Assembly (NCBI GenBank): GCA_023249095.1
Contig: JAHFDK010000014.1
Coordinates: 1 to 59,710 of the forward strand
Source: Candidatus Rokuibacteriota bacterium
GTDB taxonomy: Bacteria; Methylomirabilota; Methylomirabilia; Rokubacteriales; CSP1-6
DNA length: 59,710 nucleotides
Direction of reading: 5' to 3'
Below the pieces are notes generated by a model that saw nothing but the letters and a program-made list of their open reading frames with translations, was not told where the DNA came from and searched no databases. Position 1 is the first letter of the stretch, and each line of letters starts with the position of its first letter. Position numbers and translations under genes: made by a program. Positions 11,329 to 32,505 of the stretch are shown here, one piece after another.

Positions 11329-11838
11329 TCATCTTCCACCTCGCCACTTGACGGAGGCCACCCGGCCACCGGTCATCTGCACGAGATCGGCGGGCGTCAG
11401 CTTGAAGACCGTATTCGGGTGACCGGCCGCCGCCCAGATCTCCGGCCACTGCATCAGATCTTCGTCGATCAGGATCGTCAGCGGCTCGGCGTGCGCGACG
11501 GGAGCGACGCCGCCGATCGCGAAGCCCGTCCGGGCCCGCACGAAGTCGGCGTCGGCCCGCGCCACGGGTTCGGCGACCAGCCCGGCCACCCTGCGCTCGT
11601 CGACCCGGTTCGCGCCGCTCGTGATGACCAGGACCGCACCCTGGGTGTTCTCGCCGCGGAAGACCAGCGACTTCGCGATCTGGTCGACGCGGCAGCCGAC
11701 CGCGCGCGCGGCTTCGGCCGAGGTCCGCGCGGGCTGCTCGAGGGCGACCACGGTGTGGCCGCCGCCAGCGGCGGCGAGGACGTCCTGAACCCGCCGGACG
11801 CTGGGGCCTAGCGCCGGGTCCGTCCCTTCATGCGCCAT
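11329..11838 (-). CDS. YbaK/EbsC aminoacyl-tRNA deacylase family
   Basis: QIAKSLVF, SGANRVD, TGFAIGGVAP, WAAAGHP; start ATG 11838 overlaps the upstream stop. Confidence 0.88.
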   Translation of the reverse strand: MAHEGTDPALGPSVRRVQDVLAAAGGGHTVVALEQPARTSAEAARAVGCRVDQIAKSLVFRGENTQGAVLVITSGANRVDERRVAGLVAEPVARADADFVRARTGFAIGGVAPVAHAEPLTILIDEDLMQWPEIWAAAGHPNTVFKLTPADLVQMTGGRVASVKWRGGR

Positions 11839-12572
11839 CAGAGACCGCGCACGGCTCGCGAAACGTCGCCGGGCTCTGGCCTCACCTGAATGTTGTCGGC
11901 CAGCGAGAGCCAGCGGACGATCCCCTGCCGGTCGATGACGACCGTCGTCGGTCTCGGGACATCCTGCCCTTTGTTCCCGCCGCGGGCGTGGACGAGACCG
12001 TAGCGCCGCGTCACCGTCAGGTCGCGGTCCGTGAGGAAGCGGTAGCGCGCCCGAAGCCGCTCGGCGAGCGCCTGGCTCCGCTCGTTCGAGTCGGGACTGA
12101 TGGCCAGAAGTTGCACCCCGGCGTCGCCAAGCTCCGTGAGGACAGCTCCAAGCCCGTGGAGCTCCGAGACGCAGAAGGGTCACCAGTAGCCGCGGTAGAA
12201 GACCAGGACGACCGGCGTCCGGTCGCGAAAGGACGCGAGGGTGACCGGGGCTCCCGCCGCGTCCGGCAGCGTGAAGTCGGGCGCCGGTTCGCCGACGCGA
12301 AGGGCAGGCGCCGTCGTCGGGATCCTCGCGAGCGAGAAGTTGAAGTAGCCGCCGAGCACGAGCAAGGCCGCCGAGAACACGAGGGCCGCGAGGTTTGCCC
12401 AGCGCGCGGCCCGCCACGACGCCAGAGCCGCGATCGCCGTCGCCAGGGCGAAGGCCCCGACGTAGAGCGCCGGATGGTTGCGGATGACGGGCACCCGCAG
12501 CAGGGAGACGTAGCCGGCGACGGCGCCGAGCGAGAGGGCTACGCTCAGAAGCGCCGGCCAGTACCTGGTCAT
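11838..12572 (-). CDS. Membrane-anchored AhpC/TSA (peroxiredoxin-like) selenoprotein, Sec at codon 131 (UPFC)
   Basis: ORFs 12180-12764 and 11838-12116 share a frame across TGA 12180-12182: APDFTLPD...VLVFYRGYW-U-PFCVSEL...LLAISPD; SECIS-like hairpin 12144-12163; about 3 N-terminal TM helices. Confidence 0.85.
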
Positions 12573-13267
12573 CGCGCGAGGGCGACCCGGTCGAACGTCT
12601 CCGCGTACGCGTAGCCCTTCGACTTTCCGAGCTCGGCCGAGCGCTCGCGCACGCGCTTTTCGACGGCCGGGAAGTCGGCGAACTGACTCGCGTGGCAGGC
12701 CAGAGCCTTGAGCTTCAGATCCATGACGTCGGAGATATCGACCACGAGCTGCGGGTTCTCCCACTGCATGAGATGGATTTCGAGCACCTTGTGGGGCTCG
12801 TAGTCGGGCATGAGCTCCGGAAACGCCAGGTGGTCGCGGGCGAGCGGGTACACGCAGTCGAGGGCAACCCCCGCGGTGATCCGGTGGTCGCGGTGGGAGC
12901 CGCCGAGGTTGTAGCTACGGTGCGGGTTCATGGCGATGACGAGGTCCGGGCGCCACCGGCGGATCTGTCGGGTGACATCACGCCGGAGCTCGCGCGTGTC
13001 CTCGACCTCGCAGTCGGGATAGCCGAGGAACTCGACTCGCGCGACGCCGAGCGTGCGGGCGGCGTTTCGCTGCTCCGCCTCGCGGATCAGGGCCAGACGC
13101 TCCGATGTCATCGTGCGATCGCCCGAGCCCTTGTTGCCGTTGGTCACGATCACGTACGTGACCTCGCAGCCCTCCTTGATCAGCTTGGCGATGGTCCCGC
13201 CGGCCCCGAACTCGGAATCGTCAGGGTGCGCCGTCACCACCATGACGCGCTCGATCTTCTCGGTCAA
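12569..13267 (-). CDS. PIG-L/LmbE family deacetylase (BshB/MshB-like)
   Basis: AHPDDSE and HRDH motifs, KLKALACHASQF. Confidence 0.9.
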   Translation of the reverse strand: MTEKIERVMVVTAHPDDSEFGAGGTIAKLIKEGCEVTYVIVTNGNKGSGDRTMTSERLALIREAEQRNAARTLGVARVEFLGYPDCEVEDTRELRRDVTRQIRRWRPDLVIAMNPHRSYNLGGSHRDHRITAGVALDCVYPLARDHLAFPELMPDYEPHKVLEIHLMQWENPQLVVDISDVMDLKLKALACHASQFADFPAVEKRVRERSAELGKSKGYAYAETFDRVALAR

Positions 13268-13356
13268 AAGACTCTCCTTTGTAACGGGGGCCGTGAGGCC
13301 GGATCGGGTCGAGGGTGGCCTGAGAAAGATGCGGCGTGGCTCCGCGGCGCCCGCGC

Positions 13357-13390
13357 AACCCTTCGCTCAACCCTCAAACCCTTCGCTCAA
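13357..13390. promoter_or_regulatory. 14-bp direct repeat pair in a divergent intergenic region (candidate operator)
   Basis: AACCCTTCGCTCAA at 13357-13370 and 13377-13390 (20-bp period). Confidence 0.45.
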
Positions 13391-13455
13391 TCGTTAGAGG
13401 TCCTTTCCCAGCATACCGATTCCGGGCGTGGTGGGCGAACGGCTATAATTGCCTG

Positions 13456-15147
13456 ATGTCGATCGGCGCCCCGCGCCGGGTGGGGATCGCGGGCTTGCTC
13501 GGGCTCCTCGCCGGCGCGATCGTCCTGATGCCGGCACCCGGGAATCCAGGGGCTCTCAGGCTCGCCGGAGTAGGCCTGCTCTGGTGGTATGCGGCTCTCG
13601 CCGCGCCACTCGCCGCAGTCCTTCTGGTGATCGTCGTTCGGCGTGCGTCTCCCGAGACTGGAACCGGTGCAGGTGGCTCGGCCGCCCTCGCGGCGTGGAC
13701 GTCGCCGGTGGTTCTCGCCCTCGTTGCCGCGCGCGTTTTCTCGGGCGCGCCGGAGGCGCCGACGATCGCGCTCGCCATCCTCGTGGCACCGCTGATCGCG
13801 CTGCTCTGTCCGGCCACGGACGCAGCGCAGCGACCGAACCGTGTCGCGGCGCTGGGGATCAGCGCCGGCGTCGGATTGGTCCTTTGGGCGAATCTCCTCC
13901 TGCTCGCGGACGTCGCCGAGTTGCTGGGTCTCCCTCGCTGGGCGACGAGCATCGTTGCGGCATCCGTGGCCCTTCTGGCCGTCGCACTGCTGCGTGGCGA
14001 CCCGGCCGTCGAAGCTGGTCCACGCCTCTTTCAGGCCGGCCTCCGGAGCCCCGGCCTCTGGCTCCTGTACGTGAGCGGCCTGGGGTTCGTGGCGTTGGTC
14101 ACGGTCGTCGCCGTCGCCCTCGCCGCCTCTCCATGGGGCGCCTGGAAGGACGTCGCGTCGCGGCCCGCGCTCACGTTCGGAGCGCGCAATCCGTGGGTGA
14201 CCGAGGGCCGGAGGCTCGCCGCGCCGACGACGCTCGAGTTCACGGAGGCTCATCGCGTTACGGCGCTGAGCCCCGCCACGTACCGCGTCCTCGAGCCTGG
14301 CCGGTTCCGCGAGTGGCGGCTTCGCGCCGGCGAATCGCTGTCGCTCCGGGCGGGCGATCATCTGGTGATCGCCGCCGGTGCACGTTTGATGTTCGAGGCC
14401 GGAAAGCGGGTCCCCGGAGCGGCCGCCTCGGGCGCCACGTGGGCCGACCCGCCAGAGCGGAGCGGACTTTCGACGGTCGTGCATGCGCTGGGCGCCGCGC
14501 TCACGCTGGTCGGTGGCGCAGTCGCCCTCGTCGTACCCGAGCGGGCGCTGACAATCCGGGGTGTCTCCACGGGGTCAGGGCTCGTGCTGGCGTTCGTGCT
14601 CGGGGCCCTCTGCCTCGGCGTTTACGGGGCCTACTCGGCGCCCGGGCTCTCCATCGGCGCGCCCGCGCTCGCGGCCGTCTTCGGCGTCCCGGATGCTGTC
14701 GTCCCCGGACGGGCGGGCAGCGCCTTGGTGGTGCTGAGCGCCGTCGTGCTGCTCCTTCTCCTCTCGGCAACGGTGCTGGCGCTGCGTGGCGTCCTCGGCC
14801 GAGCGTGGGGTGAAGCAAGCACCGGGGACCCCACCGTAGCATTCCTTGTCGTCGCCGCATCCATCGGCAGCCTGTGGCCGGGCGACGCATCGCGAGCCCT
14901 CCTGGCTGGACTCGGGCTGACCGCGTCGGCCGCCGTCGCGCCCCGTGTGGCGGGCGACAGCCCGCAGGCCCGGCTGGCGGGTTCGCTGGTCGGCGTGATC
15001 GCGTTCGCCGGTCTCTCCGTGCTCGGCCCGCGCCTGCCGGCGTGGGCCGACGTTGCGTGGACATACCCCGCGCTGGCCGCGGCGCCCCTCGCATGGGTGG
15101 TAGTGCGAGCGGAGACCGTGCGACGGGCGAGGCGAGCGCTTCAGTGA
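13456..15147 (+). CDS. Polytopic membrane protein, possibly a divergent sodium:solute-symporter-like protein
   Basis: Many hydrophobic helices around a central soluble loop; TATAAT 6 nt before ATG 13456; family assignment weak. Confidence 0.55.
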
Positions 15148-15204
15148 CCGGGGCCGTGCGAGCGGAGACCGTGCGACGGGCGAGGCGAGCGCTTCAATGA
15201 CCGG
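15100..15204 (+). repeat. Tandem duplication (53-bp period) of a GTAG-initiated REP-like element
   Basis: GTGCGAGCGGAGACCGTGCGACGGGCGAGGCGAGCGCTTCARTGACCGG at 15103 and 15156, one mismatch in 49 bp. Confidence 0.85.
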
Positions 15205-15261
15205 CGGCCAGCGAGCACGGAATGTTGCCGCGGCCTCGCGACGCTGACACAATAGGTCGCC

Positions 15262-18078
<2,817 letters not shown>

Positions 18079-18081
18079 CGC

Positions 18082-19515
18082 ATGCGCCGGACCAAGATCG
18101 TCTGCACGATCGGTCCCGCGAGCCGCAGCATCGCCGAGCTCGATCGCTTGGTTGGAGCTGGCCTGGACGTCGCCCGCCTCAACTTCTCGCATGGCACGCA
18201 CGACGAGCATGCGGAGGTTCTCCGGCGGCTCCGTGAGGGCGAGGCGCGATGGGGCCGCCCGGTCGCCATCCTTCAGGATTTGCAGGGGCCGAAGATCAGA
18301 CTGGGAACGTTCGGCCCGGGTGGGGGCGGCCGCGTCGACCTCGAGGCGGGCCGGACGTTCACCCTCTACGCCCGTCCGGTCGAGGGCACCGCGGAGCGGG
18401 CGTCGCTCACCCATCCGGAGTATTTGAAAGACCTGCGGCCCGACGACGAGATCTGGATGGACGACGGGATGATCCAGCTCCGCGTCGAAGCGGTGTCGCC
18501 GGGCGACGTGCGGTGCCGCGTGGTCGTCGGCGGCCGCATCAGCGATCACAAAGGGCTCTCGCTGCCGCGGGTCACGCTGCCGGTGTCCTGCCTGACGTCG
18601 AAGGACCGCGACGACCTGCGCTTCGGTCTCCGCCAGGGGGTGGACTTCATCGCGGTCTCGTTCGTCCGGTCGGCCGACGACATCGAAGAGGTGCGGAGCT
18701 TTCTGCGGGCCGAGGCCGCCGGGGACCTGCCGATCGTCGCGAAGCTCGAGCGTCACGAGATCCTCGGCAATCTCCCGGGCATCTTGAACAAGGTGGACGC
18801 GGTCATGGTCGCGCGCGGCGACCTCGGCGTCGACGTGCCGATCGAGGACGTGCCCCATATCCAGAAGGAGATCATTCGCCAGGCGCGCGACGCGAAGGTC
18901 CCGGTGATCGTCGCGACCCAGATGCTGGAGTCGATGGTCACGCATTTGCGGCCCACGCGCGCCGAGGTCTCGGACGTTTCGACGGCGATCTTCGACGGCG
19001 CCGACGCGATCATGCTGTCCGCCGAGACCGCCACCGGGCGGTATCCCGGCGAGGCGGTCTCCGTCATGGCGCGGATCGCCGAGCGCGCCGACGGCGCGAT
19101 GCTGGCCGTCGAACGGGAGCGGCGGCGGCGCCCGGGCGGGAGCTTCCAGGAGGCCATCTCCGACGCGGCGGCGACGGCGGCGCATGTGCTCGGCGCGCGC
19201 GCCATCGTGGCGTTCACCGAGTCGGGCTTCTCGGCCCGCCTCATCTCTCAGGCCCGGCCGGGCGTGCCGATCATTGCGCTGACGCCGTTCGTCGAGGTCC
19301 AGCGGCGGCTGGCGCTTTCGTGGGGTGTCTCCTCCCGTCTGATCCGAAAGGTCGAGACGACCGACGAGATGATCGAGGAGGTCGAAGCGACGCTGCTGAG
19401 CAACGGCTCGGTGCGCCCCAACGACGTGATCGTCATCATCTCCGGATCGCCCATGTGGGTCCGGGGAACGACGAATCTATTGAAGCTCCACCGGGTGGGC
19501 GAGCGCCGCGCGTGA
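18082..19515 (+). CDS. pyk: Pyruvate kinase
   Basis: RRTKIVCTIGPAS, ARLNFSHG, DLQGPKIR, MVARGDLG, ATQMLESM, MLSAETA. Confidence 0.97.
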   Translation: MRRTKIVCTIGPASRSIAELDRLVGAGLDVARLNFSHGTHDEHAEVLRRLREGEARWGRPVAILQDLQGPKIRLGTFGPGGGGRVDLEAGRTFTLYARPVEGTAERASLTHPEYLKDLRPDDEIWMDDGMIQLRVEAVSPGDVRCRVVVGGRISDHKGLSLPRVTLPVSCLTSKDRDDLRFGLRQGVDFIAVSFVRSADDIEEVRSFLRAEAAGDLPIVAKLERHEILGNLPGILNKVDAVMVARGDLGVDVPIEDVPHIQKEIIRQARDAKVPVIVATQMLESMVTHLRPTRAEVSDVSTAIFDGADAIMLSAETATGRYPGEAVSVMARIAERADGAMLAVERERRRRPGGSFQEAISDAAATAAHVLGARAIVAFTESGFSARLISQARPGVPIIALTPFVEVQRRLALSWGVSSRLIRKVETTDEMIEEVEATLLSNGSVRPNDVIVIISGSPMWVRGTTNLLKLHRVGERRA

Positions 19516-22500
19516 GGGTCGCGCTCGGGCGCCCGGCCGTCCGCCGCGTGGTCCCGGTGCTGATCGGCCTCGTCCTGCTCTGGTTCGTCGCGGGCATCTT
19601 CCTGGCGCGCACGCTCGCCGCGCGACACGACACCGCCGCCACCGCCACGCTCGCGTCCGTTCGAACGATCGTCGCGGCGGCGCTCGAGGAGGTGCGCCGC
19701 GAAGCGTCGCTCCTGGCCCAGGATCCGGCCATCGTCGAGGGTGCGAGCCGGAGTGACTGGGCCACCCTCGTGCGCGGCGCGTGGCCCCGGATTCTGGCGC
19801 TGACGCAGGAGCGCCGCGCCGACCTGCTGCTGATCGTGGACGCGAGCGGCGCTCCGCTCGTCCAGGTGCCGGCCGCACGGCACGTCGCCGCGGCGGCGGT
19901 CGCTCGACCTCCCGAGGCCGTCGCGCGGCTTGCCGTCATCGACGAGCGGCCCTACGTGCTCGGGATCGCGCCGATGCCCGCCGGTCTGGTGATCGTCGGG
20001 CGGCGCTTCGAGTCGCTCGCCGGAGCGGTCGCGCGCCTGCCATCGCGCCCTGCGGTCGTGGTGGTGGCGGGCGATCGAGCCCTCGGCTCCACATTGCCCG
20101 GCGCGCCCCCGCTCGGCTGGGACACCGCGGTGCGGGCCGGGCAGATCACGATCAGCGGGGAGCTCTGGTTCGCACGTCAGCTCGGCGAGGCCGACGGCGG
20201 TCTCTGGGCGCTCGTCTCGGCGCGGGAGCAGCGCCGGGAGAGCAGCCAGCTCTGGTTCTGGTGGGCGGTCTCGCTGTCGGCGGCCGGCGCCACCGCCGTT
20301 GGGATCGCAGCGGTTTCTGGATCGGAGCGTGGGGACGGAGCAACGGAGGGTGGCCCGAGACCGACACGACCGCGAGAGGCGCCCGCGGCCGGACGCGAGA
20401 CGTCCGAGGCCGGACGCGAAGCGTCCGACAACCGCCGGAGTCGGGAGCTCGAAGCGCTGCACGCGGTCGTGGTGGCGACCGGCAGCGGCGACGATCTGGC
20501 CCTCACCGCCGAGCGGACGCTCGAGGTCGTGTGCGGCGTCGCGGGGATCCCCTTCGGAGGTGTGTTCCGGTTCGACCGGGCAACCCAGACGCTCGTCCTC
20601 ACCGCCCACCGTGGTCTCCTGCCCGACGACGTCGAGCGCTTGCGTGTCCGCTCGCTCGACCAGAGCCACGTCGGCGAAGTGATCCGCAGCGGCCGGCCGG
20701 TCGTGACCGATCTCACGGCCTCCCGCGTGCTGGCGCCCGACGTCGTCGAGCGCGTGCAGGCCGGCGGCTACCGAACTCAGCTCGGGCTGCCGATTCCGGT
20801 GAACGGCGAGACATGGGGCGTCATGGCTCTCATCACGCGAGAGGCCAGGACCTTCGATGCTGATGAGCTGACGCTGCTTCAGGCGGTCGCGCACCAGGTG
20901 GGACAGGCGGTGGCGCGCACCGCGCTCCTGGCCGAGGGCCGGGAGCAGAGTCGTCGCCTCGAGACACTCGCGCGTCTGGCGCAGACGCTGACCGCCACGC
21001 TGTCGCTCGACGAGGTGTTCCGCCGCGTGGTCGATGCGGCGGTCGAGCTGTTCGGGTCGAGCACTGCGCAGCTCTGGCTCGTGGACGACGACGACCGCCA
21101 CGTCTCGCTGCGGGCGGCCGCGGGGATCCCGTCGTCGGAAGGCGTCGAGCGCCTGCGCGTTGGAGAAGGGCTCGTCGGGCTGGTCGTGGCGACCCGCGAG
21201 CCGCTGACGGCGGTCGACGCGCTTCGGGACCCGCGGGCGCGCGACGTCGAGCGGGTCCGCGCCGAAGGCGTGGTCAGCGTCGGAATCGTGCCACTTCAGC
21301 TGGGCGAACGGGTGCTGGGCGTTCTGGCCATCGGCGTACGGGCCCGGCACGAATACACCGCCGAGGAGCTGCGGCTCCTCGGCTTCCTCGCCTCGCACGC
21401 GGCGAACGCGATCAACAACGCCCAGCTCTATCGCGAATCGACCCGGCAAGCGCAGCGCATGAGCGCGCTGACCGACCTGGTGCGTCTGGTGTCCGAGACC
21501 CTCGACTTCGACCCCGCCGCGCAACGCGTCGCCGACAGCGTGTGCTCGTTGCTCGGGGCCCGGGCCTCGTGCCTCTACCGGATCGACTCGGCCTCCGACG
21601 CTCTCGTCGCGTTCGCGACCTCGAGGGACGCCGACCAGCTCTTCCAGTGGCAGCCGGTGCTGCCGAGCGGCACCGGGATCGCCGGGCTCGCCGTAAGCCA
21701 GCGCTGTTCGGTCGCTTCGGCCGACGTGCTGGCCGATTCTCGCATCACGTACACCGATGATATTCGTGCCCGTGTCGCGCAGGAGACGTACCGCTCCCTG
21801 CTCGCCGTTCCGCTGCTTGTGCAGGGACGAATGTTTGGCGCGCTCGCCGTCAGTGATCGCGTCGGACGCGTCTTCGATGAGTCTGAGATCCGCCTCGCGC
21901 AAGCGTTCGCCGATCAGGCCGCGCTGGCGCTGGAGAACGCGCGGCTCTACACGGAGGCGACGCGCCGACGGCTCGAAGCGGAAGAGCTGGCCCGGCTTGC
22001 GCGGAAGCTGACCGAGAGCCTCGATCCGCGAGCGGTCGGCGATCAGATCGCCGAGAGCGTGCTCGCGCTCTTCCAGGTGCGGTCGTCCGTGCTGCGATTG
22101 CTGCAGCCCGACGGGTCGCTGGTGACCCTGGCGCGCGGGGGCCGCCGCCGTGAGTCTTCGCCGCTCGGGGCCGTGCTGCCCGCGGGCGTCGGAGCGTCCG
22201 GGCTGGCGGCGGTCGAGGGTCGACCCGTGGCGTCGGCCGACGTCTTCAACGACCCGGAGATCGTCCTGAGCGAAGAGGTCGCGGAGGCGATGCGGCGCGC
22301 CGGCGACGGTGCGCTGCTGGCGGTGCCGCTCCGGGCGAAGGGCCGGATCATCGGCACGCTGTCGCTGGGGGATGCGTCCGGCCGGGTTTTTTCCGAGGCG
22401 GAGGTCGGGCTGCTCCAGGCCTTCGGCGACCAGGCGGCGCTCGCGCTCGAGAACGCCCGCCTCTTCTCGCTCGAGACGGCCCGTCGGGGGCAGATCGCGG

Positions 22501-24632
22501 CCCTCGCCGAGGCCGAACGCGAGTTCGCCCCCGAGCTCGACCCCGACCGTCTTCTCACGCTGGTCGTCGAACGCGCCACGCGGCTCTTCGACGCCCACGG
22601 CGTCATCTACCTCGTGGACGCGGACGGCGGGCTGGCGCCGCGCGCCTGGACGCGGGACGGCGGGTTCGAGGACCTCGCCGTCGCGTTCGGGCACGGCGTG
22701 GTCGGCGGCTGCGCCGAGCAGCGCCGCGGACTCATCGTCAACGACTACGCGGCGTCGCGTTTCGCCCTGCGCAAGTGGGTCGACATGGGCGTGCGCCGCG
22801 CGATGGCGTTCCCGCTCAGCGTGCAGGAACGGCTGCTCGGCGTCATCGCGATGAATCGCACCAGCCCCGCCGCCGCACCATTTCTCGACGAAGACCTGGC
22901 GGTTCTGGAGAGCTTCGCCGCCCGCGCGGCCATCGCCCTCGAGAACGCGCGACTCTACGCGCAGAACCGGCAGCAGGTCGAGGAGCTCTCGGTGCTCTAC
23001 GAGCTATCGCGGGCGGTCACCGGCCAGCTCGATCGCGCAACGCTGCTCGAGGCCATCCGGGCCCAGGTCGCCCGCATCCTCGACGCCGCCAACATGGCCA
23101 TCGTGCTCCTCGACGACGAGCGGCGGGACCTCGAGGTGGTGCTTCGTACCGTGGACGGTGCGCGCGACATGCGGACGCCCCTCCGATACCCGAGCCACGC
23201 GGGACTGATGTCGGTCGTGCTCGTGACGGGCGAGGCGGTCCTGACGGAGGACTACATCGCCGAGTGCGCGCGTCGCGGCGTCGAGCCCGTGGCGACCTTC
23301 GCACACCCGCGACACTGGCTCGGCGTCCCGATGAAGGCCGGGGACACGGTGATCGGCGTTCTGACGTTGCGGAGCGCGGACAGGGCATTCACCGAAGCCG
23401 ACGAGCGGCTGTTGACGAACATCGCCGATCTCGCCGCGCTGTCGCTGCGCAACGCGCGCCTCTTCGAGGAGCGCACACGCGCGTATGGCGAGCTGGCCGC
23501 GGCGCAGGACCAGCTCGTGCGCACGGAGAAGCTCCGCGCGCTCGGCGAGATGGCCTCGGGGGTGGCTCACGACTTCAACAACCTGCTCGCGTCGATCCTG
23601 GGACGGGCCCAGCTCACGCTCCAGCGAGTTCAAGATCCGCAGCTTCGCAAGTGGATCCAGGTCATCGAGCGCGCCGCCCTGGACGGCGCGCAGACCGTCC
23701 GCCGACTGCAGGAGTTTACGCGGATCCGCCGAGATCAGCAGCGTTTCGTCGCGGTCGACCTCAACGAGGTCGTGCGTGGCGCGCTCGAGATCACCCAGTC
23801 GCGCTGGCGGGAGGAGACGCGCAGCCGGGGCGTCGCGGTCGACGTGCAGACCTCGTTCGCGAGCCTGCCGCCGGTGGCGGGCGATCCCGCCGAGCTGCGC
23901 GAGGCGATGACCAATCTCATCCTGAACGCGGTGGACGCCATGCCGACGGGCGGCACCCTGACGCTGACCACGGCCGTCGAGAACAACGAGGTCGTGGTGA
24001 CGGTGGCCGACTCCGGCGTCGGCATCCCTGAGGCCATCCGGGGCAAGATCTTCGACCCGTTCTTCACCACGAAGGGACCGCAGGGCACCGGGCTCGGACT
24101 CTCGATGACGTACGGGATCCTCTCCCGTCACGGCGGGCGCATCACGGTCGAGAGCCCCGTCGGGCGCGGCACCGTGTTCCGCCTGACCTTTGCGCCTGGG
24201 GAAGCCTCCGACCTGGACGGGCCAGCCCCGGCACCCGAGCCCACCCCGCTTGGCGTCTCGCTGCGGTGCCTGGTCGTCGACGACGAGGAAGAGGTTGGTA
24301 CGGTGCTCGGCGACGTCCTGACGACGGGAGGCCATCGGGTCGTGGTGCTCACCGACGGAGGCGAGGCGATCGCGCGATTCCGCGCGGAGCCCTTCGATCT
24401 GGTGTTCACCGACCTGGCGATGCCGCGGGTCTCGGGCTGGCAGGTGGCGCAGGCGGTCAAGGAGATCGCGCCCGCGGTGCCGGTCGTCCTCGTCACCGGC
24501 TTCGGCGTCGAGCTGTCAGCGGAGGAGCGCCAGATCCACGGCGTAGACCTGGTGGTGGTGAAGCCGTTGAAGATCCAAGACGTCCTGGACGTCGTTGCGC
24601 GCGTGGCCCGCCGGCGCGCTCGGCAGACCTGA
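19512..24632 (+). CDS. Membrane hybrid sensor histidine kinase: periplasmic domain, six GAF domains, HisKA-HATPase, receiver
   Basis: GTG overlaps the pyk stop; repeated ..ALENARL(Y/F) GAF ends; H-box GVAHDFNN; NLILNAVDAM, FDPFFTTK, GTGLGL; REC VVDDE/TDLAMP. Confidence 0.9.
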   Translation: MRVALGRPAVRRVVPVLIGLVLLWFVAGIFLARTLAARHDTAATATLASVRTIVAAALEEVRREASLLAQDPAIVEGASRSDWATLVRGAWPRILALTQERRADLLLIVDASGAPLVQVPAARHVAAAAVARPPEAVARLAVIDERPYVLGIAPMPAGLVIVGRRFESLAGAVARLPSRPAVVVVAGDRALGSTLPGAPPLGWDTAVRAGQITISGELWFARQLGEADGGLWALVSAREQRRESSQLWFWWAVSLSAAGATAVGIAAVSGSERGDGATEGGPRPTRPREAPAAGRETSEAGREASDNRRSRELEALHAVVVATGSGDDLALTAERTLEVVCGVAGIPFGGVFRFDRATQTLVLTAHRGLLPDDVERLRVRSLDQSHVGEVIRSGRPVVTDLTASRVLAPDVVERVQAGGYRTQLGLPIPVNGETWGVMALITREARTFDADELTLLQAVAHQVGQAVARTALLAEGREQSRRLETLARLAQTLTATLSLDEVFRRVVDAAVELFGSSTAQLWLVDDDDRHVSLRAAAGIPSSEGVERLRVGEGLVGLVVATREPLTAVDALRDPRARDVERVRAEGVVSVGIVPLQLGERVLGVLAIGVRARHEYTAEELRLLGFLASHAANAINNAQLYRESTRQAQRMSALTDLVRLVSETLDFDPAAQRVADSVCSLLGARASCLYRIDSASDALVAFATSRDADQLFQWQPVLPSGTGIAGLAVSQRCSVASADVLADSRITYTDDIRARVAQETYRSLLAVPLLVQGRMFGALAVSDRVGRVFDESEIRLAQAFADQAALALENARLYTEATRRRLEAEELARLARKLTESLDPRAVGDQIAESVLALFQVRSSVLRLLQPDGSLVTLARGGRRRESSPLGAVLPAGVGASGLAAVEGRPVASADVFNDPEIVLSEEVAEAMRRAGDGALLAVPLRAKGRIIGTLSLGDASGRVFSEAEVGLLQAFGDQAALALENARLFSLETARRGQIAALAEAEREFAPELDPDRLLTLVVERATRLFDAHGVIYLVDADGGLAPRAWTRDGGFEDLAVAFGHGVVGGCAEQRRGLIVNDYAASRFALRKWVDMGVRRAMAFPLSVQERLLGVIAMNRTSPAAAPFLDEDLAVLESFAARAAIALENARLYAQNRQQVEELSVLYELSRAVTGQLDRATLLEAIRAQVARILDAANMAIVLLDDERRDLEVVLRTVDGARDMRTPLRYPSHAGLMSVVLVTGEAVLTEDYIAECARRGVEPVATFAHPRHWLGVPMKAGDTVIGVLTLRSADRAFTEADERLLTNIADLAALSLRNARLFEERTRAYGELAAAQDQLVRTEKLRALGEMASGVAHDFNNLLASILGRAQLTLQRVQDPQLRKWIQVIERAALDGAQTVRRLQEFTRIRRDQQRFVAVDLNEVVRGALEITQSRWREETRSRGVAVDVQTSFASLPPVAGDPAELREAMTNLILNAVDAMPTGGTLTLTTAVENNEVVVTVADSGVGIPEAIRGKIFDPFFTTKGPQGTGLGLSMTYGILSRHGGRITVESPVGRGTVFRLTFAPGEASDLDGPAPAPEPTPLGVSLRCLVVDDEEEVGTVLGDVLTTGGHRVVVLTDGGEAIARFRAEPFDLVFTDLAMPRVSGWQVAQAVKEIAPAVPVVLVTGFGVELSAEERQIHGVDLVVVKPLKIQDVLDVVARVARRRARQT

Positions 24633-24648
24633 ACGGAGGACGACCGCC

Positions 24649-25437: not shown

Positions 25438-25460
25438 CGCTGATGCGCGCAGGAGGGGCT

Positions 25461-25724: not shown

Positions 25725-25805
25725 CGGGGCCGCCTGAGCGCGTCGACCGGCACGGGGACCTCGAGTACAATCTCGATGGCGATCCCCTACTTTGAGGAGA
25801 CTCAC

Positions 25806-26585
25806 ATGACGACCAAGGATGCCGCTCGGGTTTCCAGAACCGCCGTCAGGCTCTACTACCGGCCCGGCTGATCGTCCTGCGCCAAGACGAAGGAGCTCCT
25901 CTCGTCTTGGGGGGTCGAGTTCGACCCGGTCGACGTGCAGGCGTACCCGGAAGGCTACGCCGAGCTCAAGCGGTTGGGGATCGGACGGGTGCCCGCGGTG
26001 ACGGTCGGCGACCGCGCCGCGCACGGATGGAACCCGCCGGCGTACGCCGAGCTGCTCGGCATTCCATACTCAGCGACGGTGAAGCTGTCGCCGACCGAGC
26101 TGGCCAAGCGGCTCGACATCATCCTGGATTCGACGCAGGGGCTCATCCGCGGCGTGCCGGACGAGCACATGGACTGGCGGCCGCCCGAGCGGAATCGGAC
26201 CCTGCGCAACCTCGGCTATCACGTCTTCCGGCTGTCGCTGGCATTCGTGGACGGGATGGACCTCGGCGAGTTCCCGGAGTCCTGGCTGCTGGACCAGGCG
26301 CCCGCCGATCTTCGCGACGGGCCGGCCATCGCGCGCTACGGCGCGCTCGTGCGCGGACGCATCACCGGGTGGTTCGAGGGGGCATCGCCCCGCGAGTTCG
26401 AGCGCGTGATCAAGGTCTACTATGGCCCCCAGTCGGGCCACGACCTGCTCGAGCGCACGACGTGGCACGCCGCACAGCACCTGCGCCAGCTCTACGCCCT
26501 GGCCGAGCGCCTTGTGGTCACGCCGCCGGGACCGATGCCGACCGACGCGTTCGTGGGACTGCCCCTTCCCGACGCTCTCTGGTGA
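25806..26585 (+). CDS. Glutaredoxin-like (USSC) + DinB-domain fusion selenoprotein, Sec at codon 22
   Basis: ATG 25806 (RBS GAGGAG) reads VRLYYRPG-U-SSCAKTKELL..WGVEF..VDV in frame with ORF 25935-26585; cis-Pro RVP; DinB histidines LGYHVF and WHAAQH; hairpin 25882-25910. Confidence 0.85.
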
Positions 26586-27352
26586 CGAGGGTCGACTACG
26601 ACCGGAGTCTCTGGCGCGCGTATCGCGCCGGCCGTGCCCTCTCCGAGGACACCGGCCGGCTCTGGATGGACGCGATCGCCCGCCACCTCGGCGGCACGCG
26701 CTCAGGCCTGACGGTCCTCGATCTCGGAGCCGGTACGGGGCGCTTCGCCGTCCTGCTGGCCGATGCGTTCGACGCCCGCGTCGTCGCCGTCGAGCCGTCG
26801 GAGAAGATGCGCGTGGAGGCGGAGCGTCACAGCGCGCATCCGCGAGTTGACCACCGCGCTGGCGCCGCGGAGACGATCCCCGCCGCCGACACCGAGTTCG
26901 ATTTCGCGTTCCTCTCGATGGTCATCCATCACGTCGGGGACGTCGCCGCCTGCGCGCGTGAGCTCCACCGGGTGGTCAAGCCGGGCGGGCTCGTGTTCAT
27001 CCGCAACGTCTTCAGCGGGCGCCTGGACGGTGTGCCTCACTACGCGTTCTTCCCCTCGGCACGCGCCGTCGACGAGAGGCGCCTGCCGACTCTCGAGGCA
27101 GTGCGGCAGGCCTTCGTCGCGCAGGGATTCGAGCTCACGGCCCTCGATACGCTGGTGCAGGAGATCGACCCGAGCCTCACCGCCCACTACGAGCGAATCA
27201 CGCAGCGAGCGCTGTCGACGTTCGAGTTGATCACCGACGCCGAGTTCGAGGAAGGGCTCACCCGGATGCGCCACGCCGCCGCCCGCGAGACCACGCCGAC
27301 TCCCGTCCTCGAAGCCATCGACCTGCTCGTCCTCCGCCGACAAACGACCTGA
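26582..27352 (+). CDS. Class I SAM-dependent methyltransferase
   Basis: VLDLGAGTGRF, AVEPSEKM, VKPGG; GTG start overlaps the upstream stop. Confidence 0.88.
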   Translation: MTRVDYDRSLWRAYRAGRALSEDTGRLWMDAIARHLGGTRSGLTVLDLGAGTGRFAVLLADAFDARVVAVEPSEKMRVEAERHSAHPRVDHRAGAAETIPAADTEFDFAFLSMVIHHVGDVAACARELHRVVKPGGLVFIRNVFSGRLDGVPHYAFFPSARAVDERRLPTLEAVRQAFVAQGFELTALDTLVQEIDPSLTAHYERITQRALSTFELITDAEFEEGLTRMRHAAARETTPTPVLEAIDLLVLRRQTT

Positions 27353-27355
27353 CCG

Positions 27356-28291
27356 CTAGTCGTCTTCAGCCCAGGCCGTCGTGAGCCGACGAGCGAGGGC
27401 GCGGTGACCCCTGATGAAGTAGGCGAGCATGGCGCCGGTCGCGAGGAGGTTGCCGAGGAGGACGGTCCATCCCGCCAGCTCGTCCAGGACCCACTTCGCC
27501 GCGATCAACACGCCGCCGATGAACAACACCTCGAACGCCGTGAAGAAGATCACCAGGGCGAAGACGAAGAGCGGCTGGCGCTCCGCGCCCGCGATCAGCG
27601 CGGCGCCGACAATTCCGAATAACGCGAACGCGATCCCGTGCACGACGGTGTAGGAGGCGATCGCGGCGAGCGAGTCGGTCTGGCGGAGGATCCCCGTGCC
27701 CAGGAGCCTCGGCGTCCGGAGCGGCTCGCCCTGGATCCAGTCGATCGCCAGGAACCACAGCGCGACGGCGGCGGCGCCGAGCAGGCCGGCCACGACGCCC
27801 TCGCGGAACACGCTGCCCCAGGAGCCGATCAGCGTGCGCGACAGGGCGCGGTGGGCGCGGAAGAAGTACCAGAGCATCGCGAGGGAGGCGAGGAGGTTGC
27901 CGCCGAGGATCGCCCACCAGACCAGGGCGCCCAGCATCGACTTCCCGAGCGCCCCGACGATGCCGAAGACGAACACCTCGAAGCTGGCGAAGAGGATCAC
28001 GAAGGCGACAAACAGCGTAGGCTCGCGCTCGCTGACGGCCATGAGGCTCGCGGCGACGACGCCGAACGCGATGAACGCCAGGCCGTGGATGATCGTGTAG
28101 CCGAGGACGTTGCCCACGGTGGGCCGAAGTCCAATCGGGTTGGTCACGCCCTGGAAGACCGCGGCGCCCAGGAGCCCCGGGGTCAGGAACGGCTGGCCGC
28201 GCCAGATGTCGAAGAGAAGGAACCAGACGGCGACGACCGCCGCGCCGATCAAGCCGGCCACGACCCCTTCCTTCAGGATCGACCGCTGCAC
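27356..28291 (-). CDS. Integral membrane protein with internal tandem duplication
   Basis: Two homologous halves, each starting EGVVAGL.GAA.VA.WFL..D...G.P..TP.LLG. Confidence 0.75.
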   Translation of the reverse strand: MQRSILKEGVVAGLIGAAVVAVWFLLFDIWRGQPFLTPGLLGAAVFQGVTNPIGLRPTVGNVLGYTIIHGLAFIAFGVVAASLMAVSEREPTLFVAFVILFASFEVFVFGIVGALGKSMLGALVWWAILGGNLLASLAMLWYFFRAHRALSRTLIGSWGSVFREGVVAGLLGAAAVALWFLAIDWIQGEPLRTPRLLGTGILRQTDSLAAIASYTVVHGIAFALFGIVGAALIAGAERQPLFVFALVIFFTAFEVLFIGGVLIAAKWVLDELAGWTVLLGNLLATGAMLAYFIRGHRALARRLTTAWAEDD

Positions 28292-28346
28292 GGACGGTAT
28301 TGTATCGGAGCGCGCGGCTTGTTGTAGCGGGCGCCGTGAGCCCGGC

Positions 28347-29039
28347 TCAGACCGCGGGTGGCCCGAGATAGATGCGACCCGGCTCCGCTCGCCCGTTCTC
28401 GGGGTCGCGGGCGAATCTGACGCCGTAGTCGGAGTAACGAAGGTGCGGCGGCAGAGACGAGCGATGGGCGACCGGGCTCCACGGGTCGGCGTGACGCCAC
28501 GCGCCGCCGCGGCTCACGCGCCGCGTGCCGGCTGCCGGGCCGCGGGGATTCCGGTCCGGCGAGCGGCGGTAATAGTCCTCGGCGAACCAGTCGCCGCACC
28601 ACTCATGGCAGACGCCGGAGAGATCGGTGAGCCCCAGCGTGTTGCCCGGCGTCCCGCCGACACGGGGCGGACGGTCGAACGTGACGCCAGGCTTCGCGTC
28701 GCCCCACGGGTAGCGCCGACCGTCGAGGCCGCCGCGCGCGGCCTTTTCCCACTCGGCCTCCGTCGGCAGCCGCGCGCCCGACCACTCGGCGAACGCGCCG
28801 GCTTCGGTCCACGAGAGACCGACGACGGGTTGGCTCGGGTCGGCGAACGCCGGGTCGGACCAGAACGGCGGCGATGAGGCGCCGGTGGCCGCCATGTACG
28901 CGGCGAAGTCTCCGTTCGTCGCCGGTGTGCGGGCGATGAGGAAGGTGTCGACCCAGACGACATGGGGCGGGCGCTCGGACGGGTGACCGTGAGCCCAGCC
29001 CATGCTGAACGGCCCCGCTGGAACGCGCGCGAAGTCCAC
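28347..29039 (-). CDS. Formylglycine-generating enzyme (FGE-sulfatase/SUMF1/EgtB C-terminal) domain protein
   Basis: VPAGPFSMG, RLPTEAEWEKAARGG, YPWG, GL.DLSG..EWC.DW, RGGAW, GVRFAR. Confidence 0.88.
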   Translation of the reverse strand: MDFARVPAGPFSMGWAHGHPSERPPHVVWVDTFLIARTPATNGDFAAYMAATGASSPPFWSDPAFADPSQPVVGLSWTEAGAFAEWSGARLPTEAEWEKAARGGLDGRRYPWGDAKPGVTFDRPPRVGGTPGNTLGLTDLSGVCHEWCGDWFAEDYYRRSPDRNPRGPAAGTRRVSRGGAWRHADPWSPVAHRSSLPPHLRYSDYGVRFARDPENGRAEPGRIYLGPPAV

Positions 29040-29065
29040 GCCTTATAATAGGGACCTTCCGAGAA

Positions 29066-29121
29066 GTAGTGCGAGCCGCAGCATGTCGCGGGGCTGGGGC
29101 CCCGCCGTGCGAGGCGAGCCT
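29066..29121 (+). repeat. GTAG-initiated structured element, copy A (5' UTR of aminotransferase)
   Basis: 45/55 identical to 32917-32971, with compensatory stem changes. Confidence 0.75.
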
Positions 29122-29137
29122 ATAAAAGGAGACGCCC

Positions 29138-30310
29138 ATGAACGTCGCCCCGCGGATGGCCCGGCTCGGAACCGAGTCCGCGTTCGAGGTGCTGGCCCGC
29201 GCGCGGCAGCTCGAGCGCGCCGGCCGCGACATCATTCACCTGGAAATCGGCGAGCCGGACTTCGACACGCCGGTGCACATCAAGGAGGCCGCAAAGCAGG
29301 CGCTCGACGCGGGGGCGACGCACTACGGCCCGTCTGCGGGGCTGCCGGAGCTTCGCGAGGCGATCGCCAAGCACGTCGCCGAGACGCGTGGCGTTCCCGT
29401 CTCGCCCGAGGAAGTCGTCGTCACGCCGGGCGCCAAGCCGATCATGTTCTTCACGATCATGGCCCTGATCGGCGATGGCGATGAGGTGATCCACCCGAAT
29501 CCCGGCTTTCCGATCTACGAGTCCGTCATCAATTTCGTCGGCGGCGTCCCGGTGCCGATTCCGCTCCGCGAGGACAGCGGCTTCGGATTCGATCTCGAGC
29601 TGTTCGAGCGCCGCGTCTCGTCGAAGACGAAGCTGATCGTCATCAACTCGCCGGAGAATCCCACCGGCGGCGTGCTCGACCGTGACCAGCTCGAACGCAT
29701 CGCGGCGATCGCCGTCGCGCGGAAGATCCCGGTGCTGACCGACGAGATTTACCGGCAGTTCCTCTACGAGGGCGAGTTCGCCTCGATCATGGGCCTGCCG
29801 GGTATGCGAGACCAGACGATCTTGCTCGACGGCTTCTCGAAATCGTATGCGATGACCGGCTGGCGCCTTGGCTACGGCGTGATGCCGCCGCCCCTCGCCG
29901 AGCACGTGGCGCGGCTCATGGTGAACTCGAACTCCTGCACGGCCTCGTTCGTGCAGCTCGCCGGCATCGCGGCGCTCCAGGGCGATCAGACGCCGGTTGC
30001 CCGCATGGTGGCCGAGTTCAAGCGACGGCGCGACCTGTTCGTGGATGGCCTCAACCGCCTGCCCGGCGTTCGATGCGCGCGGCCGCGCGGCGCCTTTTAC
30101 GTGTTCCCGAACATCACGGGGACCCGCCGGCCGTCAGCCGAGGTCGCCGAGCGTCTCCTGACCGAGGCCGGCGTGGCCGCGCTGTCGGGCGCGGCGTTCG
30201 GCGCTCACGGTGAGGGATATCTCCGGTTCTCGTACGCGAACTCGGAGGCCAATTTGCGCCTGGCGCTCGAGCGCATGCGGCCGGTGTTCGAGAGCTTCGC
30301 CGGGAAATGA
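29138..30310 (+). CDS. PLP-dependent aminotransferase class I/II (AspC-like)
   Basis: GEPDFDTP, NSPENPTG, DEIY, GFSKSYAMTGWRLGY. Confidence 0.92.
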   Translation: MNVAPRMARLGTESAFEVLARARQLERAGRDIIHLEIGEPDFDTPVHIKEAAKQALDAGATHYGPSAGLPELREAIAKHVAETRGVPVSPEEVVVTPGAKPIMFFTIMALIGDGDEVIHPNPGFPIYESVINFVGGVPVPIPLREDSGFGFDLELFERRVSSKTKLIVINSPENPTGGVLDRDQLERIAAIAVARKIPVLTDEIYRQFLYEGEFASIMGLPGMRDQTILLDGFSKSYAMTGWRLGYGVMPPPLAEHVARLMVNSNSCTASFVQLAGIAALQGDQTPVARMVAEFKRRRDLFVDGLNRLPGVRCARPRGAFYVFPNITGTRRPSAEVAERLLTEAGVAALSGAAFGAHGEGYLRFSYANSEANLRLALERMRPVFESFAGK

Positions 30311-30332
30311 CGGCGGCCGAGTCCCAGTCGGC

Positions 30333-31784
30333 GTGAGCCGGAGCACCGTCGCCGACGTCGTCGTCGACGGCTTGAAGCGGGCCGGCACGCCGCGGCTGTT
30401 CGGCGTGGCAGGTCTCGAGACGAACCTCCCGCTGCTCGAGGCGGCGCGCGAGGGCGGGCTTCCGCTGACGCTCGCGTCCAGAGCGACCACGGCGGGCATC
30501 ATGGCCGCGGTCTCCGGCGATCTGGTCGAGGCGCCGGGCGCGGCGCTCGTCGGTTCCGGGCGCGGCGTCACGACGGCGATCGACGGCGTCGCGTACGCCC
30601 TCGAGGACGGCGCGGCGATGGTCTTGCTGACCGAGCGTCTGTCCGTGCCCGGCTGCAAGGCGAGCCTCAGCGTGGCGGCCGAGTCCGCGGCGCACCGGAT
30701 CGCTCACGCAACGCGGCTGGCCGCCACCGAGCCACGGGGGCCGGTCCATCTGGAAATCCCTGCCGAGGTCGCGCGGCGGCCGGCGCTGCCTCTCGCAACG
30801 TCGTGCCGACCGGATCCGCTGCCGCCGCCCGATCGCGGCGCTCTCGACGGGGCGGCCCGACTGCTCGCGCGCGCGTCCCGCCCGCTGCTCGTCGCGGGAC
30901 TGCACTGCCGCTCGACGAGCGTGCAGCAGTGGGTCCGCGCGCTGGCGGAAGCTCTGCCCGCGCCCTTGCTGGTGACGTGTAGAGCCAAGGGCGCGCTGCC
31001 GGACCCGCACCCGCTGATGCTGGGCGTTCTCGGTGTCGACGGCGTCGACGAGCGATTGCTGAAACGCGCCGATCTCGTCGTGGGGCTGGGGCTCGACGCG
31101 CTCGAGCTTGTTCAGTCACCCTGGTGGTCGACGGTCCCTGTGCTCGGGGTCGGTCCACCGCAGGCGCTTGGCGATCGAATTCCCGCGGTCGCGGTGGTCG
31201 GCGACGTCGCGGTCGTCCTCGAGGAGCTCGCGCCACGGCTGCGCGACCGGGAACGGGCCGACTGGGACGTCGCCGAGCTCGACCGGCTCAAGCGCGAGCG
31301 TTTCGCGGCCGGGGCCGGTCCGGCGCTCGCCAGGAGAGGGATCGTCCGCGTCGCCCGCGAGGCAACGCCGGCCGGCACGATCGCCACGTGCGACGCCGGT
31401 TCTCACCTGGTGGACGTCGCTATCGCCTGGCACGCCGTCGCTCCGCGCGAGTTCCTGGCGTCCAACGGACGCGTCACGGCGGGTTTCGCCCTGCCGGCCG
31501 CGATCGCGGCGCACCTCGTCCATCCCGATCGGCGCATCGTCTGCTTCACCGGAACCGATGGCCTGGCCGCGGCAGCGACCGAGCTCGAGACCGCGACACG
31601 GCTCGGCGCCCCGATCGTCGTGATCGTCTTCGGCGCCGGCACCTCGGCCGCGCCCGACCTCATGCGACTGGCGCAGGGCTTCGGGGTGACGGCGCTCGCA
31701 GCCGACAGCGAGGCCCGGTTCGGCGAGGCGCTGAGTCGAGCGTTGCGAACCGCGGGGCCGTCGCTGGTCGCCGTGTGGCCTTGA
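30333..31784 (+). CDS. Degenerate thiamine-pyrophosphate-enzyme (acetolactate synthase-like) protein
   Basis: Three-domain layout (FGVAG, PRGPVHLEIP, ADLVVGLG, DAGSH, GFALPAAIAA); start uncertain. Confidence 0.7.
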   Translation: MSRSTVADVVVDGLKRAGTPRLFGVAGLETNLPLLEAAREGGLPLTLASRATTAGIMAAVSGDLVEAPGAALVGSGRGVTTAIDGVAYALEDGAAMVLLTERLSVPGCKASLSVAAESAAHRIAHATRLAATEPRGPVHLEIPAEVARRPALPLATSCRPDPLPPPDRGALDGAARLLARASRPLLVAGLHCRSTSVQQWVRALAEALPAPLLVTCRAKGALPDPHPLMLGVLGVDGVDERLLKRADLVVGLGLDALELVQSPWWSTVPVLGVGPPQALGDRIPAVAVVGDVAVVLEELAPRLRDRERADWDVAELDRLKRERFAAGAGPALARRGIVRVAREATPAGTIATCDAGSHLVDVAIAWHAVAPREFLASNGRVTAGFALPAAIAAHLVHPDRRIVCFTGTDGLAAAATELETATRLGAPIVVIVFGAGTSAAPDLMRLAQGFGVTALAADSEARFGEALSRALRTAGPSLVAVWP

Positions 31785-31854
31785 CGATGATGAGCCCGCG
31801 GCGGACTACGCCGCCACGATCGCCGGGTCGATGCGCGCCAGGTATAATGATGCC

Positions 31855-32505
31855 ATGCCGATCCTGACCGCGCGCGACCAGGCCGCTGTTCGCAAGGAGT
31901 TCGAGCGCATCACTGGGCCCGTGAAGCTCGTCGTCTTCTCGCAGGAGCTCGCCGCCGCCGAGCTCTGCCAGCAGAACGAGCAGCTCGTGCGCGAGGTCGC
32001 CGAGCTTTCCGACCAGATCACGGTGGAGGTGCTCAACCTCGCCATCGACCGCGAGCGCGCCGAGGCGTACGGCGTGGACCAGGTGCCGGCCATCGTCGTC
32101 GAAGGCAGCCGCGACTACGGTATCCGCTTCTACGGCGTCCCCCTGGGCTACGAGTTCAGCAACCTCATCGACTCGATCATCGTGACGTCCACCGGCGCGC
32201 CGGCGCTGGCGGAGGACACCCTGGCCTCGCTGCGGGCGCTCTCCGCCGACGTCGACATCAAGGTTTTCTCGACGCCCACCTGACCTCATTGTCCCCGGGC
32301 CGTGCGCCTGGCACAGCACATGTCGGTCGCGTCCGACCGCGTGCGCTCGACCGTCATCGAGGCGACGGAGTTTCCCGAGCTGTCGCGGGCCTATCAAGTG
32401 ATGGGCGTGCCGAAGGTCGTGATCAACGATCGCGTGCAGTTCGAGGGCGCCGTCCCCGAGCAGGAGTTCCTCGGCGCGGTGCTCCAGGCGGTGGAGACGT
32501 CCTGA
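31855..32505 (+). CDS. Protein-disulfide oxidoreductase (PDO/AhpF N-terminal-like) selenoprotein, UPHC
   Basis: ORFs 31831-32283 and 32302-32505 share a frame across TGA 32281-32283: IKVFSTPT-U-PHCPRAV; GIRFYGVPLGYEF; VMGVPKVVIN; hairpin 32299-32317. Confidence 0.88.

Follow-up and report, generated by a model that had tools for sequence, protein, structure and literature searches.

Three thioredoxin-fold genes with conserved in-frame UGA codons and candidate SECIS hairpins in a selenoprotein-rich genome of the Rokubacteria

Bacterial selenoprotein genes carry an in-frame UGA codon that is read as selenocysteine (Sec) by way of SelB and of a stem-loop inside the coding sequence, the selenocysteine insertion sequence (SECIS). 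According to a 2026 review, the bacterial SECIS model requires an apical loop of 3-9 nt that has G within its first two positions and lies 16-37 nt from the UGA (PMC13188914, section 5), and the review's table of known selenoprotein families includes Prx-like (UxxC), Grx (UxxC), UGSC and the AhpF-N homolog TIGR02187 (UxxC) (PMC13188914). Large selenoproteomes are documented as well: BSepDB holds 111 families, with 56-63 genes in its top organisms (PMC13326102), the Delta 1 symbiont of Olavius algarvensis has 57-63 selenoprotein genes (PMC13188914, section 10; PMC13326102, Table 2), and a metagenome-assembled genome (MAG) of the Methylomirabilota, with 63 predicted genes, is presented as a new upper bound (PMC13188914). 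In this paper, we examine three genes with in-frame UGA codons (genes 1-3) in a stretch of 59,710 nt from a Candidatus Rokuibacteriota MAG, hereafter the window, and compare them with these systems.

The source genome comprises 6.29 Mb in 504 contigs (67.6% G+C), of which the window is contig C325. Relatives in which gene 2 was located are MAGs of Candidatus Rokubacteria, Rokuibacteriota and Methylomirabilota, with few labelled otherwise, and come largely from soil and groundwater. An earlier note on this DNA, made from the sequence alone, had proposed that three different thioredoxin-fold genes between positions 11838 and 32505 have UGA at the N-terminal redox Cys position. The in-frame TGAs are there, the domains are AhpC-TSA, Glutaredoxin plus DinB_2, and Thioredoxin_3/TIGR02187, and the two limits coincide with the stop codons in which genes 1 and 3 end. 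It is very probable, in our judgement, that all three are functional selenoprotein genes of a Rokubacteria/Methylomirabilota-type bacterium in which UGA is read as Sec via SelB and SECIS. We infer that the stem-loops found 17-24 nt downstream of each UGA would act as bacterial SECIS elements, recognised by SelB with Sec-tRNA(Sec) as its cargo; the ribosome, supplied with this tRNA by SelB, would then insert selenocysteine at the UGA where it would otherwise stop. In each of the three thioredoxin-fold proteins, which differ from one another, Sec would be the attacking, N-terminal residue of a UxxC redox site. The likeness to SelB/SECIS recoding of the Escherichia coli fdhF type, as captured by the bSECISearch consensus model, consists in the in-frame UGA, the stem-loop within the coding sequence at that distance, its small apical loop with G (then G or U) in the first two positions, and the presence of tRNA-Sec, SelA, SelB and SelD. 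The three hairpin sequences are unrelated to each other and presumably also to the E. coli fdhF hairpin.

Gene 3 (31855-32505, plus strand; stop TGA at 32503-32505) scores 258.1 bits against a curated cut-off of 185 for TIGR02187 (PDO_seleno_TRX), the model that the review lists as a known selenoprotein family (PMC13188914), and 87 bits for Thioredoxin_3. Residues 3-213 align end to end with the Pyrococcus PDO structures 1j08 and 1a8l and thus span two thioredoxin-fold units; the Sec codon (UGA at 32281-32283, residue 143, motif TUPHC) falls on the first Cys of the second CPYC, in the C-terminal unit. The first unit of the Pyrococcus PDO has CQYC, whereas that of gene 3 is without CxxC and has one Cys only (ELCQQ). 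As a protein it would belong with the PDO/AhpF-N-like disulfide oxidoreductases. All of 30 loci retain the TGA, and in a sample of the phylum it occurs in 105/105 match rows, from 99/151 genomes (97/149 if the unpublished genomes G090 and G127 are left aside).

Gene 1 (11838-12572, minus strand) has 244 codons and ends in a TGA at 11840-11838. An N-terminal hydrophobic region of ~85 aa is followed by an AhpC/TSA domain (PF00578, 107.4 bits against a Pfam gathering score of 26), within which the in-frame TGA (12182-12180) specifies residue 131 in the motif WUPFC. C134 lies at the peroxidatic position of the Prx structure 2cx3 and U131 three residues earlier, giving a UxxC site; the product would be a Prx-like oxidoreductase anchored in the membrane. 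The TGA is kept in 22/22 full-length orthologs; among eight loci of distant paralogs it stands at the aligned codon in six and a few codons later in two. The AhpC-TSA domain and the UxxC with its Cys at the peroxidatic position are shared with the Prx-like thiol:disulfide oxidoreductase selenoproteins (PF00578, UxxC), from which gene 1 differs by its hydrophobic N-terminus, by the lack of an NCBIfam equivalog among the models matched (PRK09437 51.9 bits against a cut-off of 140, SelL_rel_redox 44.6/120, WAxxUGC_long 28.5/300, PrxU 28.5/270) and by its coupling, within the genus, to a PIG-L gene. The latter encodes a PIG-L/LmbE-type GlcNAc deacetylase (12569-13267, minus strand), the stop of which overlaps the start ATG of gene 1 (ATGA); this translational coupling is found in 16/21 ortholog loci, all in the genus.

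Gene 2 (25776-26585, plus strand; 269 codons, stop TGA at 26583-26585) joins a Glutaredoxin/NrdH-like domain (PF00462, 43.8 bits against a gathering score of 22.9) to a DinB_2 domain (34.8 against 24.8). Its start may instead be the ATG at 25806, as residues 1-11 are unconserved and not confidently modelled. The Sec codon (UGA at 25869-25871, residue 32, motif GUSSC) aligns with the first Cys of CPYC in the Grx structures 2mzc and 2khp, as in the glutaredoxin selenoproteins (PF00462, UxxC). Among NCBIfam models, gene 2 remains below the cut-offs of Uxx-star (39.5/88.55), YruB (34.6/85.75) and NrdH (30.7/66); compared with Uxx-star proteins it runs on for 237 residues after U, a contrast that rests on how the family name is read. 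Of 29 loci in near relatives, 27 have TGA and one has TGC, the remaining one being a truncated contig. A wider set of 80 loci from species-representative genomes, with identities down to 46%, covers the site in 78 cases, 77 of them with TGA and one with TGC. Gene 2 is nearly universal in Rokubacteria, with a single reversion to Cys among 78 sequences. An alignment of 30 full-length sequences shows no variation at G31, U32, S34, C35, P73, H149, H231 and H235.

The AlphaFold2 model of gene 2 (pLDDT 89.9, pTM 0.84) has an N-terminal domain that matches NrdH and Grx structures in Foldseek, while its C-terminal domain matches the four-helix-bundle fold of the DinB/YfiT proteins 3dka, 1rxq and 6iz2 as well as mycothiol S-transferase 8f5v, with probability 1.00. 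None of these Foldseek structure matches holds both domains in one solved chain. Gene 2 would be akin to the DinB/YfiT thiol S-transferases (YfiT/BstA, mycothiol S-transferase) in its modelled fold and its three invariant His, H149, H231 and H235, which, by analogy with YfiT and mycothiol S-transferase, may be metal ligands; from these transferases and from the Grx selenoproteins alike it differs by the fusion of both domains in one chain. In a limited library of literature that did not cover BSepDB, no description of a DinB-fused selenoprotein was found. All three window genes are members of known selenoprotein families, and only the Grx-DinB fusion may be undescribed. We suggest tentatively, and with more doubt than confidence, that it may be an uncatalogued selenoprotein family, a self-contained metal-dependent thiol S-transferase/reductase in which the Sec domain would resolve or recycle a thiol adduct bound by the DinB domain. 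Together with the PIG-L gene beside gene 1, the DinB domain could, speculatively, hint at a low-molecular-weight thiol metabolism of the bacillithiol or mycothiol type.

The earlier note had also expected that standard annotation would fragment these genes, which is borne out in public databases. Gene 2 has 1892 public matches at E <= 1e-10; most of the best 120 are N-terminally truncated, being mostly 195-229 aa long, beginning after the TGA and bearing the name 'DinB family protein' or 'hypothetical protein'. The public size of 216 aa corresponds to the open reading frame (ORF) at 25935-26585 under translation table 11. If the uncatalogued family is real, it has been hidden behind such truncated 'DinB family protein' entries. 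Gene 2 orthologs with TGA were also seen in records titled Actinomycetota, Nitrosocosmicus, Verrucomicrobiia, Thermodesulfobacteriota, Acidobacteria, Blastocatellia, Terriglobia and SAR324 (loci L201, L211, L222, L246, L250, L255, L261 and L262), which represent either mis-binned contigs or horizontal spread.

The hairpin of gene 2 (25882-25910, plus strand) has the stem CCA.GACGAAGG and CUCUCGUC.UGG around the loop AGCUC, which begins 22 nt past the UGA. It is the single-sequence minimum free energy (MFE) fold (z = -2.6) and is kept by RNAalifold on 21 orthologs with the loop at the same distance. Across 62 distinct sequences its pairing is retained in 92.4% of cells, against 34-57% when the 3' partners are slid, and two pairs show compensatory changes (AU 39/CG 11 and AU 20/GC 16); the covariation score was reached by none of 500 shuffles. 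These compensatory changes are coupled to K-to-R and S-to-A amino-acid changes.

The hairpin of gene 1 (AGCUCCA/UGGAGCU; 12144-12163, minus strand) is the RNAalifold consensus of 22 orthologs, with seven invariant pairs. Its loop CGGGCU begins 23 nt past the UGA in the window; in relatives an additional A-U pair extends the stem and the loop is a tetraloop, GGNC, at 24 nt, the third loop position varying freely. The codons CAA, CUU and GGA, rare and A/U-ending, are invariant among orthologs, while coding third positions of the genome are mostly >83% G+C. Invariant A/U-ending codons in such a G+C-rich third-position background argue for a constraint on the RNA.

For gene 3, the most likely SECIS is the hairpin CCGGGC/GCCUGG with the loop CGUGC (32295-32311, plus strand), whose loop lies 17 nt past the UGA; it is both the single-sequence MFE fold and the RNAalifold consensus, and is invariant in 29/29 orthologs. 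Four orthologs of 43-50% identity have a different 8-bp hairpin with the loop GGU at the same place (13 of 20 fetched loci were read). The earlier note had described hairpins of CGGGCU at 23 nt, AGCU at 22 nt and GCCUG at 22 nt for genes 1, 2 and 3, respectively. The first two stand as described, but the third, a GUGC/GCAC helix (32302-32314, plus strand) that overlaps the hairpin preferred here, is broken in 5/29 orthologs and was probably mis-registered, the loop lying at 17 and not at 22 nt.

All three consensus hairpins (loops GGNC at 24 nt, AGCUC at 22 nt and CGUGC at 17 nt) fit the bacterial SECIS model of the review's section 5 (PMC13188914). How often hairpin geometry arises by chance was assessed by folding 40 domain-supported Sec sites of the genome along with 3000 random codons and 3000 Cys codons. 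A loose geometry (a loop 13-30 nt downstream that has G as its first or second base) is seen at 30/40 Sec sites and likewise at 1063/3000 random codons (35%) and 1047/3000 Cys codons. Geometry alone is therefore weak evidence, and the earlier note had given it too much weight. A strict hairpin (5 or more contiguous pairs, a 3-7 nt loop and a spacing of 14-26 nt) discriminates better, occurring at 23/40 Sec sites as compared with 187/3000 random and 186/3000 Cys codons, an approximately nine-fold enrichment, and the MFE of the region +7 to +45 is lower at Sec sites (Mann-Whitney P ~2e-6). Across 38 Sec sites the loop begins anywhere between 14 and 30 nt, without any single fixed spacing, so that the matching geometry of 22-23 nt put forward in the earlier note was too neat. 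Because the hairpins share no sequence and their loop starts vary, the covariance model that it envisaged building from all three would carry almost no information. Single-sequence folding was dropped as evidence for SECIS, hairpins 1 and 3 being no better than shuffles, and ortholog consensus and genome-wide controls were used in its place. In the orthologs of genes 1-3, synonymous sites just downstream of the TGA are more conserved than their surroundings.

The machinery for Sec insertion, the absence of which the earlier note had named as a reason to abandon its proposal, is encoded in the same genome. tRNA-Sec was detected with Rfam at 69.8 bits (gathering score 47) and called SeC(tca) by ARAGORN, and it shares contig C139 with SelA (502.7 bits) and SelB (SelB-wing_3, 67.9 bits in an open frame of 676 aa). 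SelD (335 bits) has one in-frame TGA itself. SelB was found in 137/151 genomes of the phylum sample, or in 134/148 without the unpublished genomes G081, G090 and G127.

The earlier note had further taken the organism to be rich in selenoproteins and had suggested a genome-wide scan for UGA aligned with Cys. Our scan, filtered by codon usage, yielded 962 relaxed in-frame TGA candidates, of which 92 had support from a Cys/TGA paralog or a Cys-containing motif. Eleven of these, in which one flank was shorter than 15 codons, were dropped and the three window genes set aside, leaving 78 that were searched against Pfam. In 36 a domain match spans U, including three in which the GRDB profile ends at U and NCBIfam models span it; the other 42 are adjacent same-frame genes, antisense artefacts or candidates without a domain across the TGA. 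Paralog searching added nine genes and an HMA protein with two Sec codons. Together with SelD and the three window genes, this makes at least 50 selenoprotein genes with TGA inside a Pfam or NCBIfam domain match, a count that, coming from a home-made scan, is a lower bound. They comprise 13 AhpC/TSA or TlpA-like, eight UGSC, six AhpD/YciW-like, five Grx, five Rhodanese, four GrdB/PrdB-like and two HMA genes and one each of GrdA, SelW-like, DsbA-like, CYCXC, CTP-synthase-C-terminal-related amidotransferase, PDO and SelD. Most match NCBIfam models named as (seleno)protein families, many of them below the model cut-offs, and same-genome paralogs have Cys or TGA at the position aligned to U.

The inference of a Sec-rich organism was correct but not new: for this phylum it had been published before, and such an organism is ordinary for the lineage. 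With its at least 50 domain-supported genes the genome resembles the large selenoproteomes of the Olavius algarvensis Delta 1 symbiont and of the Methylomirabilota MAG, the latter from the same phylum. It differs in that its relatives come largely from soil and groundwater, whereas Sec-rich organisms are predominantly anaerobic according to the review (PMC13188914).

Several observations weigh against the reading of genes 1-3 as SelB-dependent selenoprotein genes in a selenoprotein-rich genome. The single-sequence MFE of the hairpin 1 region is another fold, and, judged by folding energy, hairpins 1 and 3 are not more stable than shuffled sequences (z = -0.54 and z = +0.24, respectively). Covariation was not seen among the 22 orthologs of gene 1, because the stem never varies, nor in the orthologs of gene 3, the stem of which is invariant too, and for gene 3 two overlapping hairpins are possible. 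A search of the window gave no match to any Rfam family, although Rfam may not hold a general bacterial SECIS model. The view of gene 2 as a thiol transferase that carries its own Sec redox domain takes the presumed function of its DinB half from fold and residue conservation. The gene count, finally, is weakened by the state of the MAG (504 contigs, 92% complete, 4.8% contaminated) and by near-identical pairs among the ~50 genes, which could stem from co-assembled strains.

Of the rival explanations, the least improbable accounts for the closeness of the three genes, all within 21 kb, by a functional selenoprotein island or operon; we nevertheless regard it as improbable. Selenoprotein genes are indeed mildly clustered across the genome: when 50 sites are placed randomly over the contigs, 3.65 pairs within 20.7 kb are expected and 8 are observed (P = 0.04), while the expectation for triples is 0.19 and the genome has 2 (P = 0.02). 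Moreover, in at least 13 of 40 relatives a single contig carries genes 2 and 3 no more than 14 kb apart. Even so, 17% of the random trials produce one or more such triples, gene 1 is on the opposite strand, and the three genes are separated by those for the PIG-L deacetylase, uvrA, pyruvate kinase, a sensor kinase of 1699 aa, enoyl-CoA hydratase, a methyltransferase, an FGE-sulfatase-domain protein, an aminotransferase and a TPP enzyme. All three occur on one contig in the same order only within the genus (8 genomes), to which the conservation of their immediate neighbours is mainly confined as well, and in larger assemblies from the other family, e.g. G034, genes 2 and 3 are 1.8 Mb apart. What remains is mild clustering and a synteny inherited within the genus, not an operon.

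A second possibility accepts SelB-dependent recoding but supposes that Cys or another residue is often inserted, or that read-through is so inefficient that short products dominate. The Sec machinery of other organisms can mis-insert Cys under selenium scarcity. SelD, SelA and tRNA-Sec are, however, all present and conserved here, SelB is widespread in the phylum sample, and the switch to TGC in only one of 78 gene 2 orthologs argues for selection on Sec itself. We consider this explanation very unlikely.

That the TGAs are inactivating nonsense mutations or errors of sequencing or assembly, and the genes pseudogenes or split genes, is suggested by translation table 11, which breaks each of them into two ORFs, and by the truncated public gene calls. 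Yet the same codon is TGA across dozens of independent assemblies (22/22, 77/78 and 105/105 for genes 1, 2 and 3), and pseudogenes and sequencing errors are therefore excluded for practical purposes; independent nonsense mutations at three catalytic codons are as implausible as the earlier note had judged them. Both flanks of each TGA also keep a coding signal within one domain match, and the elevated conservation of synonymous sites downstream of the TGA likewise speaks against this explanation.

The idea of an altered code, with UGA as a general sense codon for Trp, Gly or Cys, which the earlier note had named as the other outcome fatal to its proposal, draws on the many in-frame TGAs (the 962 relaxed candidates) but has next to no chance of being correct, since TGA is the commonest stop (1198/1949 confident long ORFs, and the terminator of genes 1, 2 and 3 themselves) and RF2 (prfB) is present with 502 bits against a cut-off of 370, a reassigned code being therefore excluded, and since the in-frame TGAs with domain support occupy Cys/Sec positions in redox motifs and 42/78 of the Pfam-searched candidates proved to be merely adjacent same-frame genes, antisense artefacts or the like.

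The case of Sec recoding in genes 1-3 indicates that reading of raw sequence without tools can correctly detect it. It also documents ~50 selenoprotein genes in a lineage of soil and groundwater that public annotations systematically truncate, with the consequence that Rokubacteria proteomes miss the catalytic N- or C-termini of dozens of redox enzymes. Beyond the published Methylomirabilota selenoproteome of 63 genes it adds little, except for the Grx-DinB fusion and a SECIS supported by covariation.

Among the neighbours of gene 2, a class-I SAM methyltransferase (26588-27352, plus strand) follows directly on its 3' side and is found there in 13/29 loci, all in the genus. An FGE-sulfatase-domain protein of 230 aa (28347-29039, minus strand) is located 1.8 kb farther along. 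DinB, methyltransferase and FGE-sulfatase make up the domain set of EgtB/OvoA-type sulfoxide synthases, here distributed across separate genes; a split set of this type was considered but set aside, the methyltransferase neighbour being kept in so few loci. The hybrid sensor kinase between genes 1 and 2 (19533-24632, plus strand; 1699 aa) comprises six GAF domains, HisKA, HATPase_c and a receiver domain.

Three further TGAs in the window were considered and rejected as Sec sites: that at 18076 is the stop of uvrA before pyk, that at 32503 is the stop of the PDO gene before a GGACT gene, and that at 44090 is antisense to an ORF of 1062 aa (43246-46434, minus strand). Elsewhere in the genome, an array of 81-aa repeats on contig C70 (7211-10909, minus strand) has one TGA per repeat and a good coding score; it is an antisense artefact, with no Pfam match and a frame of 1232 aa on the plus strand, of a kind that would fool a naive scan for Sec.

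Some of the other genes found in the scan deserve mention. The small, secreted-looking HMA protein of locus L291 (contig C448, 10213-10623, minus strand) has the motif GMTUGTU, that is, UxxU in place of the CxxC metal-binding motif, and its paralog on contig C12 (12011-12340) has GMVUSSC. A class-I glutamine amidotransferase on contig C81 (locus L030; 9723-10508, minus strand) has TGA at its catalytic nucleophile position (GTUGGFQ); with 298.8 bits it exceeds the cut-off of 260 for NF004836, 'CTP synthase C-terminal region-related (seleno)protein', and so is a member of a family already known. Glycine, sarcosine and betaine reductase-type systems are best known from anaerobic amino-acid fermenters; in the present genome two GrdB-like, one GrdA and two PrdB-like selenoproteins are encoded on contigs C58, C376, C457, C236 and C416.

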